This document shows positions 61,593 to 63,947 of a DNA stretch of 64,000 nt, one piece after another (position 1 is the stretch's first letter; every line of letters begins with the position of its first letter). The stretch lies in the IMG/VR virus record IMGVR_UViG_3300045988_157791; one strand, 5' to 3'. Both the position numbers and the translations under genes were made by a program. Origin of the DNA: a virus (lineage: Duplodnaviria; Heunggongvirae; Uroviricota; Caudoviricetes). The notes below the pieces were generated by a model. The model saw only the letters and a program-made list of their open reading frames with translations. It did not search any database and had not been told where the DNA came from.

Positions 61593-62024
61593 TCAACGGG
61601 GAGTAATAAAGCGTTCAGAGCCTAATCGCTCTAATTCAACGATGGCCATCTTTGACGCCTGAACGATCATGTCTCGGCGATGCGAAAAGGCGGCGACAGC
61701 ATGTTTGTATATGTCTGCGATGTGCCGTGCTTCATCCAACTTCTGCCGTTTAGACAGATACTGTGGGTTTGTTTTAACCTTAGCGTCCAGTACAGACTCG
61801 TTGAACTTAATGCCGTTCATACTCAAGTTCTTACGCTCTGTGTCGTATAGCTTTGCTTCAACAGCTTCAAGGTTAAGTTTTGCCTCTGCGACATCTCGAT
61901 CTGCCTGCGCTAGTTTTGACCCATACTCCATTAAAAGCCGTGGCTGTTTACGCCATACTTCCTCAAGGTTGTCGCGGTCGAACTCCAGATCGGCCATGAT
62001 TTTAGAAAAAATATCAGTGTTCAC
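61593..62024 (-). CDS. hypothetical protein
   Basis: 143 aa coiled-coil-like protein. Confidence 0.35.
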   Translation of the reverse strand: MNTDIFSKIMADLEFDRDNLEEVWRKQPRLLMEYGSKLAQADRDVAEAKLNLEAVEAKLYDTERKNLSMNGIKFNESVLDAKVKTNPQYLSKRQKLDEARHIADIYKHAVAAFSHRRDMIVQASKMAIVELERLGSERFITPR

Positions 62025-62232
62025 TCTAATAGGTTCCTACTTATAAAATCTGTATCAATTATATCAAACAGAGAACGGGTTTATGGCGTCATGTCAACTT
62101 TGTTCAGGGGAAAATATTGAGATCACCGAAGATAATTAGTTGTCTTATTTTGGTAAGCTGTGCTGACCATCTTTAGGTCACATACATGAGATGGATGGGG
62201 GTGTGGCATGAACGGATGAAATTCAGTCGCCG

Positions 62233-62261
62233 TTGACAGATGTCAACACTGTGAATAGAAT
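62233..62261 (+). promoter_or_regulatory. sigma70 promoter TTGACA-17 bp-TAGAAT with overlapping palindrome
   Basis: TTGACA 62233-62238, TAGAAT 62256-62261; TTGACAGATGTCAA dyad overlaps -35; GGAGG RBS before ATG 62279. Confidence 0.55.
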
Positions 62262-62278
62262 ACTATTATCGGAGGCGA

Positions 62279-62503
62279 ATGAAGCAACATCCGAATAAGC
62301 ATATTCAAGCAGCCATTGACTATGCATTAAGTAAAGGCTGGATCTGGGTAGCAGCTGGTGGTGCTGCACATTGTTTTTGCAGACTGCGATGCGGTAATCC
62401 AGAAGGTGAACACAAAACTCACCAAATGAGCGTATGGTCGACTCCGGGTAATCCCGAAAACCATGCCAAACAGATCAAACGAATGGTTGATCGTTGTAAA
62501 TGA
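62279..62503 (+). CDS. HicA-like toxin (tentative)
   Basis: 74 aa; LSKGWIWVAAGGAAHCF and trailing basic segment resemble HicA family pattern (..GW....GSHH.F.H). Confidence 0.4.
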   Translation: MKQHPNKHIQAAIDYALSKGWIWVAAGGAAHCFCRLRCGNPEGEHKTHQMSVWSTPGNPENHAKQIKRMVDRCK

Positions 62504-62527
62504 TTTCAAGGCGGCATTAGCCGCCTT

Positions 62528-63127
62528 TTGCAGAAACTGTCCAACTATCTTCAAAGGAAAACTATGGCGCTTTATAACTTCACTCTGACGCTCTCAGGCG
62601 TATCGTATGAGACGGAAGGACTGGAAGACGCGCTGTACCAAAACGGCTGTGACGATGCGCTAATTTGCGCATATGGAAACTCCGTCTATGTAGAATTTGA
62701 CCGCGAAGCACAATCACTTGATGCAGCTATCGCATCTGCGGTCGACAATATTGAATCAGCCGGTATCGGTGCAATTGTTGAATCCGTCGACTCGGCTCTT
62801 GTGGGCTTAAGCGATATCGCGGAACTGACAGACCTGTCTCGCCAGGCAGTGGCGTTGCTCAAAGACGGTAAGCGCGGAAGCGGCGACTTCCCTTGCCCTG
62901 TACAACGCATAAAAGGCCAGTCTCCTCTCTGGGATTGGGCTGATGTGGCTGAATGGCTCATGAATAACGGACGACTTAAAGAGGGCGATCAAATTGTCCA
63001 AAATGCCCGAACTTTGAGTAAATGGAATCTGGCGCTTCGAAACAGCGTCTCGAAAGATTTCAACGAAATAGAGCAAATTGCGGAGAAACTGATTAAACGC
63101 CGCAAAGATATTGCGAAATGCGCATAA
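62528..63127 (+). CDS. HicB-like antitoxin with C-terminal HTH (tentative; start may be 62564)
   Basis: HTH-like LSDIAELTDLSRQAVALLKDGKR; immediately downstream of HicA-like gene. Confidence 0.4.
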   Translation: MQKLSNYLQRKTMALYNFTLTLSGVSYETEGLEDALYQNGCDDALICAYGNSVYVEFDREAQSLDAAIASAVDNIESAGIGAIVESVDSALVGLSDIAELTDLSRQAVALLKDGKRGSGDFPCPVQRIKGQSPLWDWADVAEWLMNNGRLKEGDQIVQNARTLSKWNLALRNSVSKDFNEIEQIAEKLIKRRKDIAKCA

Positions 63128-63456
63128 TGATGCCCGCCAATTGGCGGGCATCTGTTCTCTGTAAAGGTGTCTGGCATCGTCTGGTTCGTTAACGTTTACT
63201 AAACCAATGGTGACAAAAATTAGTTATCTTTGAAAAATAAAGGTTGCATGAAAAGAAGGGGTATGCGTTAATAGCATCGTTGGTTTGCAAGACAGACCTT
63301 ATGTAAGCAGTTTTAGTAAAGCAGTCTCAGTTCAGTGTTATCTTCTGATTTCCCTTCTTCGTGAGTCTCCTCCTTAAGTGCCTAAGTAAGTCCCAATCTA
63401 TACAGATCAAATTCTCGCCGCACTATGTGGCTCACAAAATTAAGAAGGTAATATCT

Positions 63457-63672
63457 ATGTCTAATAAAATGACTGGTTTAGTAAAATGGTTTAACTCTGA
63501 TAAAGGCTTTGGCTTTATTTCTCCTGCTGATGGCAGTAAAGATGTTTTTGTACATTTTTCGGCAATTCAGAGTAATAATTTCCGCACTTTGGAAGAAGGC
63601 CAGCAGGTCGAATTCTCTATCGAGAATGGGGCTAAAGGCCCAGCAGCAGCAAATGTCGTTGCTCTAAGCTGA
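63457..63672 (+). CDS. CspA-family cold-shock protein
   Basis: [38 protein letters not shown] (RNP1/RNP2); ORF-track start 63361 rejected in favour of ATG 63457 with AAGAAGG RBS. Confidence 0.85.
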
Positions 63673-63947
63673 TTCAACGCTGATGATCCTCATTTCTACA
63701 ATAACGAAGACGGTGTAAGCCTGAGTGGATAGATTTGCAGGATTGTACAAGTTGAATAAATTAGCATGGTAAGGCCATGCTAATTAAATCGACACAACGG
63801 CCAGTTTATTCCATAAAAGTGAATTGCCCATTGTGGCGAAATGCGGGGTTGCCGCATGAATAGTCAAAGGCAGAAGCTAACTGCCGGCATGGCAAAACAA
63901 AGTGCGTAAGAGGAGTGACTTCCTCAACAAGCGCCATAATTCTTTAT

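Follow-up and report, generated by a model that had tools for sequence, protein, structure and literature searches.

We examined a two-gene cassette near the 3′ end of a 64,000-nt stretch of viral DNA (IMG/VR record IMGVR_UViG_3300045988_157791, Caudoviricetes), referred to here as the window. Gene A (62279–62503, + strand) encodes a 74-aa putative toxin and gene B (62564–63127, +) a 187-aa protein with a putative operator-binding domain; the two lie on one strand, separated by 60 nt. The window region shares 99.8% identity with Escherichia phage Cyrano, an SSU5-like phage-plasmid of E. coli LF82 (PMC9928086), and is carried by 110 E. coli plasmids of ~108–120 kb and by no chromosomes. A first-pass annotation of the stretch had proposed a HicA/HicB-like toxin–antitoxin (TA) pair at this locus. 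The 74-aa open reading frame (ORF) was confirmed, as was the toxin-first-style order of two genes behind an operator-bearing promoter, whereas neither protein qualifies by sequence as a member of the HicA or HicB family, nor does B by its fold. The A–B cassette is related to a known type of system and is itself uncharacterised.

The cassette is flanked on one side by a UvsY-like gene and a gene for a gp32-like single-stranded DNA-binding protein, and on the other by a cspG-like gene and dnaE. In PhiR41_1, a close relative, the uvsY-like gene directly adjoins dnaE and the cassette is absent, while in SSU5 the A–B pair occupies the same position as in the window. A homologue from Histophilus lies in the cargo region of a P2-like prophage, beside YefM/YoeB. 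On the strength of this distribution, A–B is an accessory (‘moron’) two-gene cassette of the SSU5-like phage-plasmid.

Both genes are preceded by Shine–Dalgarno sequences, as read from the DNA: GGAGG (62271–62275, +) for A, with CGGAGGCGAATG kept in several related loci, and AAGGA (62553–62557, +) for B, 6 nt before the ATG at 62564. The second protein had been put at about 190 aa. The gene is present as described and its product is 187 aa long, all homologues beginning with MALYNF at this ATG; a 199-aa reading of B from a TTG start is wrong for the same reason.

Upstream of A lies the σ70-type promoter that had been noted previously, TTGACA-17 nt-TAGAAT (62233–62261, +; −35 at 62233–62238, −10 at 62256–62261), which matches consensus at 11 of 12 positions. 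It is the sole match of at least 11/12 on both strands of the 64-kb window, and since block shuffles average 1.28 such matches, the score alone is not beyond chance. Promoter function is supported by its position before A, where the −10 stands 18 nt and the −35 41 nt upstream of the start codon region, by conservation of the layout in other genomes and by published transcription of both genes in a lysogen. In related loci, the −35 reads TTGACA in 58 of 75, and a −10-like hexamer follows the TTGAC arm after 17 nt in 64 of 75; at least four of six −10 positions were matched in 65% of related loci versus 10% at random positions. The consensus scan revealed no second promoter, for B. In the LF82 lysogen, A is transcribed 30-fold and B 14-fold over the prophage background, and both are listed as expressed morons in a study that reports no functional test of either gene (PMC9928086).

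A palindrome, GTTGAC-AGAT-GTCAAC (62232–62247), overlaps this promoter, with the −35 hexamer inside its left arm. The palindrome that the first-pass annotation had placed over the −35 is thus real, but its 6-2-6 form, TTGACAgaTGTCAA, is not the conserved one, which is GTTGAC-N4-GTCAAC. This form was exact in 73 of 80 species-representative loci, in which the remaining upstream sequence was unalignable. It always immediately preceded A, or B in loci that had lost A, and lay nowhere else in the 8.5-kb loci, occurring once per locus apart from one locus with two copies. That locus, the only duplicated case among the 80, is from Enterobacter pulveris (L039, 3651–3688), where tandem operators stand 22 bp apart upstream of A.

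In the window, the palindrome occurs once at up to one mismatch, against 0.13 copies expected. A search for further copies, which would hint at a wider regulon, returned none at up to one mismatch from either the window or the complete 108,379-bp Cyrano genome. The centres of the half-sites are spaced 10 bp apart, which fits a symmetric dimer. The overall pattern points to a dedicated autorepressor rather than to a general phage regulator or an excisionase.

The pairing of A and B proved very tight. Among 80 species-representative genomes that encode B, A was found directly upstream of B and on the same strand in 75 (66 intact and 9 frameshifted or truncated) and was deleted in the other five; B was full length in 79. 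In IMG/VR contigs found through A, B was downstream in 61 of 61. We also examined five distant homologues of A, likely from other lineages judging by their divergent sequences, and all five were followed by a protein with the GCDD and FDREA motifs of the B N-terminal domain (N-domain). At two of these loci (L148 and L144), the partner is an N-domain alone of ~85 aa, without a DNA-binding domain, and at a third (L152) the N-domain is joined to a different C-terminal region. The constant core of the cassette is therefore A plus the B N-domain, with the HTH an add-on. In Raoultella ornithinolytica NBRC 105727 (L072, 3743–4564), the stop codon of A is replaced and A–B forms a single in-frame ORF of 273 aa; in sister Klebsiella loci, A and B share a frame and are only a stop and one codon apart.

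The AlphaFold2 (AF2) model of B (pLDDT 87) has three parts, modelled at residues 1–75, about 80–135 and 143–186. Residues 1–78 (62564–62797, +) make up an acidic, ferredoxin-like N-domain of β-α-β-β-α-β order (pI 4.05, charge −13.5), which carries the GCDD and FDREA motifs and is the putative A-neutralising part. Residues about 79–140 (62798–62983, +) form a winged helix-turn-helix (HTH) of AlpA/excisionase/MerR type, putatively operator-binding. Residues 143–186, together with the stop codon (62984–63127, +), form a helical hairpin (AF2 helices 143–162 and 166–186) that is a probable dimerisation element. Shorter B homologues from more distant loci lack it, matching model positions 1–143 only. 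An HTH had indeed been predicted in B, at the C terminus; that placement is only roughly right, as the domain is central. Against Pfam and NCBIfam, B matched neither HicB nor any other family (CagE was weak and below threshold), and precomputed Pfam assignments were lacking for all 120 listed B homologues. Matches were obtained to PHROG 2620 (‘excisionase and transcriptional regulator’) and to the PADLOC model PDC-M06B (1.3e-32).

The PHROG 2620 name, which SSU5_054 also bears, and the resemblance of the DNA-binding domain to AlpA, RdfS and Xis-type domains could indicate that B acts in recombination, as an excisionase or directionality factor, or else as a general transcription factor of the phage, with A an unrelated small phage gene. 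We regard this as very improbable. The labels stem from HTH similarity alone, the sole operator copy in the 108-kb genome is at B’s own promoter, the integrase gene of Cyrano is ~9 kb from the cassette, and the pair moves jointly into unrelated phages and chromosomes. B further differs from regulators of the AlpA/Xis/MerR type in its added N-terminal ferredoxin-like domain and C-terminal helical hairpin and in its apparent dedication to one operator, with no recombination context evident.

A is basic (pI 9.5, charge +6) and matches only PHROG 5923, of unknown function, and PADLOC PDC-M06A (1.2e-19). An exhaustive hidden Markov model (HMM) search yielded a family of 767 representative clusters at 50% identity, GC-rich lineages included, with the consensus RHPNKEIEAAv.YAE..GW...(G)HAWG.L.CP...GC..SVWSTPRNPENHA..I.R.VD.CPH. 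Six residues (H4, H31, C38, T55, P56 and C73) are each shared by at least 90% of a set of 91 diverse members. The family’s Cys/His set, consisting of C38, C/H48, C73 and often a C-terminal CPH, suggests a structural metal site; we know of no HicA with a comparable conserved Cys/His set or metal site. In the Pfam and NCBIfam scans, A had RuBisCO_small as a weak sub-threshold family match. The same family was matched weakly and below threshold by 17 of the 91 members, for example P0039 from Shewanella, and one NCBI record calls an A-family copy ‘ribulose bisphosphate carboxylase small subunit’, probably a mis-annotation.

The modelled structure of A has a HicA-like fold of the double-stranded RNA-binding domain type. 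In HicA, the functional residues lie in the β1–β2 loop (Gly22 and His24 of the B. pseudomallei protein) and in the β3–α2 loop (PMC3969222). H31 of A, invariant in close homologues, stands just before β2 and is preceded by G/S. Judged by the order of secondary-structure elements, G/S..H31 and TP56..PE.H62 would occupy the same loops as the HicA functional residues.

The cassette resembles HicAB in further respects. In classes 1 and 3 of Gerdes, hicA comes first and HicB is either small, without a DNA-binding domain, or equipped with a C-terminal HTH. Here too, the second gene encodes a globular N-domain followed by a DNA-binding domain, short partner versions lacking the DNA-binding domain occur as they do in those classes, a palindromic operator lies within the promoter, and conserved residues of A would fall in its β1–β2 and β3–α2 loops. 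The locus also has the generic make-up of type II TA systems, namely a conserved bicistronic pair, a partner with a DNA-binding domain and an operator in its own promoter. We put forward, as the best explanation and with about even confidence, that A–B is an autorepressed type II TA module built on the HicAB plan with a different, non-HicB antitoxin, the toxicity of A being putative.

Under this explanation, the σ70 promoter transcribes A and then B. B dimers would bind GTTGAC-N4-GTCAAC through the AlpA-type winged HTH and shut off the promoter. Binding is suggested by the position, uniqueness and conservation of the palindrome, and shut-off by its span over the −35 and spacer. A would act as a ribonuclease (RNase) or RNA-binding toxin, with H31 in the β1–β2 loop and TP..PE.H in the β3–α2 loop filling the HicA functional loops of the modelled fold. 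The acidic ferredoxin-like N-domain of B would bind and neutralise A, as suggested by strict co-occurrence, by partners consisting of the N-domain only, by charge complementarity and by the one natural A–B fusion; the last two fit a physical pairing of the proteins. An intergenic hairpin, described below, may tune the A:B ratio. The module could serve to stabilise the plasmid-prophage, to exclude other phages, or both.

Several observations weigh against this explanation. A had no HicA match at E ≤ 1 in Pfam or NCBIfam, and none of the 91 diverse relatives reached E = 1 against HicA_toxin, so that neither route provides a sequence link. Sequence searches of the PDB with A, B and the A-family profile returned no HicA or HicB, and a Foldseek search of the PDB with the modelled A yielded neither a significant match nor a HicA. 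The equivalence of H31 with the HicA catalytic His would follow from the order of secondary-structure elements, not from superposition. When the A family was compared by hhalign with a narrow HicA alignment (E. coli-type, at least 67% identity), A 1–17 aligned only with HicA 35–51, pairing ‘r..HPnKeIe.Ai’ of A with ‘mPRHP..EI’ of HicA (probability 81% local, 35% global). We rejected this signal as HicA homology, as the 17-column motif is out of register and not colinear with the fold. Decay of A beside an intact B (14 of 80 genomes) partly reflects how the genomes were selected, as they had been chosen through B. In the healthy lysogen, A transcript exceeds B transcript ~2:1, which is unusual if A is a potent toxin. 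Fusions of a ferredoxin-like (ACT or RAM) domain with an HTH are also typical of ligand-sensing regulators. In the literature searched, we found no reports of toxicity, binding or RNase activity for the pair.

The sequence silence of A is weak negative evidence, because solved HicA proteins miss each other by phmmer: an E. coli HicA query retrieved no other solved HicA even at E 10. This mutual divergence of HicA sequences could also mean that A and B are true HicA/HicB family members, too divergent for profile HMMs. The Cyrano record, which names the proteins ‘HicA toxin protein’ and ‘putative antitoxin HicB’, takes that view, and HicAB class 3 has the same gene order and architecture. We nevertheless consider it improbable. 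No profile match ties A (or any of its 91 relatives) to HicA_toxin or B to HicB, and the conserved Cys/His residues and N-terminal HPNK motif of A set it apart from HicA. The fold of B weakens the case further: its N-domain runs β-α-β-β-α-β, whereas HicB has a partial RNase H fold (β-β-β-α-β), and its winged HTH is of AlpA/excisionase type, whereas HicB has an Xre-HTH or a ribbon-helix-helix domain. A further difference from HicAB is the intergenic hairpin of the SSU5-like clade.

The main rival to a TA module is a non-toxic regulatory pair, in which B is a one-component regulator of its own operon, combining an ACT/RAM-like sensing or oligomerisation domain with the winged HTH, and A is an innocuous effector or cofactor that binds nucleic acid, such as a moron product that modulates the host or other phages. 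The generic ferredoxin-like matches of the B N-domain do include ACT and AsnC-RAM regulator domains, and RefSeq names B only ‘helix-turn-helix transcriptional regulator’ (A being a ‘hypothetical protein’). The missing HicA match of A, by sequence and by Foldseek, and the roughly twofold excess of its mRNA in a healthy lysogen would also suit this account. The partners of distant A homologues argue otherwise: those without a DNA-binding domain (L148, L144) or with another C-terminal domain (L152) indicate that the constant relation is of A with the N-domain, not with a regulator. Gene loss is also asymmetric, A never being found without B (61/61) yet being lost or broken beside intact B, and the charges of A and the B N-domain are strongly complementary. 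With these points weakening it, we judge a non-toxic pair distinctly less probable than the autorepressed TA module, though clearly more probable than either divergent HicA/HicB or an excisionase.

A–B also corresponds to a candidate defence system. PDC-M06 is one of 145 PADLOC ‘guilt-by-embedding’ defence candidates (Payne et al.), defined from genes embedded in BREX, DISARM, type I restriction–modification or Hma loci, and carries no mechanism. Both of its component models are matched by the adjacent genes in the expected order (A 1.2e-19, B 1.3e-32), with the difference that A–B is carried by a phage-plasmid rather than a defence locus. Neither PDC-M06 nor the RefSeq protein accessions gave any hits in literature searches. 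The organisation described here gives PDC-M06 a testable mechanism, with H31 as candidate toxin residue, B 1–78 as putative neutralising domain and a 16-bp operator. It also corrects the existing labels, the pair being neither HicA/HicB nor ‘excisionase’ by family, though organised like a TA module.

More tentatively, A and the B N-domain may define a large TA or defence family (767 clusters), in which a Cys/His-stabilised, possibly zinc-binding RNase of HicA fold is neutralised by the ferredoxin-like ‘GCDD’ domain, serving temperate phages and phage-plasmids as a superinfection-exclusion or addiction cassette. If so, the ‘GCDD’ domain would represent an antitoxin fold new to HicA-type toxins, and toxicity of A would give the HicA fold a partner of a new class. 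Because SSU5/pHCM2-like phage-plasmids occur commonly among clinical Enterobacteriaceae, their spread would be affected by cassettes that retain them or exclude other phages.

Two stem-loops accompany the operon, both overlooked in the first-pass annotation. Between A and B lies a GC-rich hairpin, AAGGCGGC-ATTA-GCCGCCTT (62508–62529, +; stem-loop at 62508–62527, then TTTT), with an 8-bp stem and a folding energy of −14.8 to −18 kcal/mol; it did not reach the threshold of the terminator scan. The z-score of the intergenic 76-nt stretch is only −1.5, and the case for the hairpin comes from its recurrence in relatives, not from its folding energy. Across the SSU5-like and Enterobacter clade, the two genes are separated by strong hairpins of differing sequence, while in the Klebsiella and Scandinavium clades the A–B gap is 3–35 nt and holds no hairpin. 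The element is possibly a partial terminator or an mRNA 3′ stabiliser, and the ~2:1 A:B transcript ratio would be compatible with partial termination there. A strong intrinsic-terminator-like stem-loop (63129–63152, +), with a 10-bp stem, eight GC pairs and a T-rich tail, ends the operon.

Just 3′ of the cassette is a cspG/cspA-like cold-shock gene (63279–63697, +; coding sequence 63457–63672; NCBIfam CspG, 1.8e-43) with a full-length Rfam cspA thermoregulator 5′ untranslated region (RF01766, 186 bits); it is unannotated in the Cyrano record, and together with A–B it takes up the accessory stretch that separates the uvsY-like gene from dnaE. On the other side, the divergent UvsY-like gene (61593–62024, −) is read by the ORF finder from a GTG start as 143 aa, versus 405 nt and 134 aa in Cyrano and RefSeq. 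The 254-bp intergenic region must accommodate its promoter as well as that of A.

Elsewhere on Cyrano (L160, 28190–30334), two further toxin genes are annotated, one for a KacT-like acetyltransferase with its antitoxin and one RelE/ParE-like gene beside parA, so A–B would bring the TA-like cassettes of this replicon to three. Two insertions were noted in SSU5-like elements, among them an Enterobacter contig (L156, 2548–4890 and 10053–14305). The recA gene contains an intein (Intein_splicing and LAGLIDADG) and measures 2340 nt in Cyrano (L001, 1335–3674) versus 1074 nt in plasmid NZ_CP020118 (L002, 901–1974). In the Enterobacter contigs, dnaE is interrupted by a NUMOD4/HNH homing-endonuclease gene.
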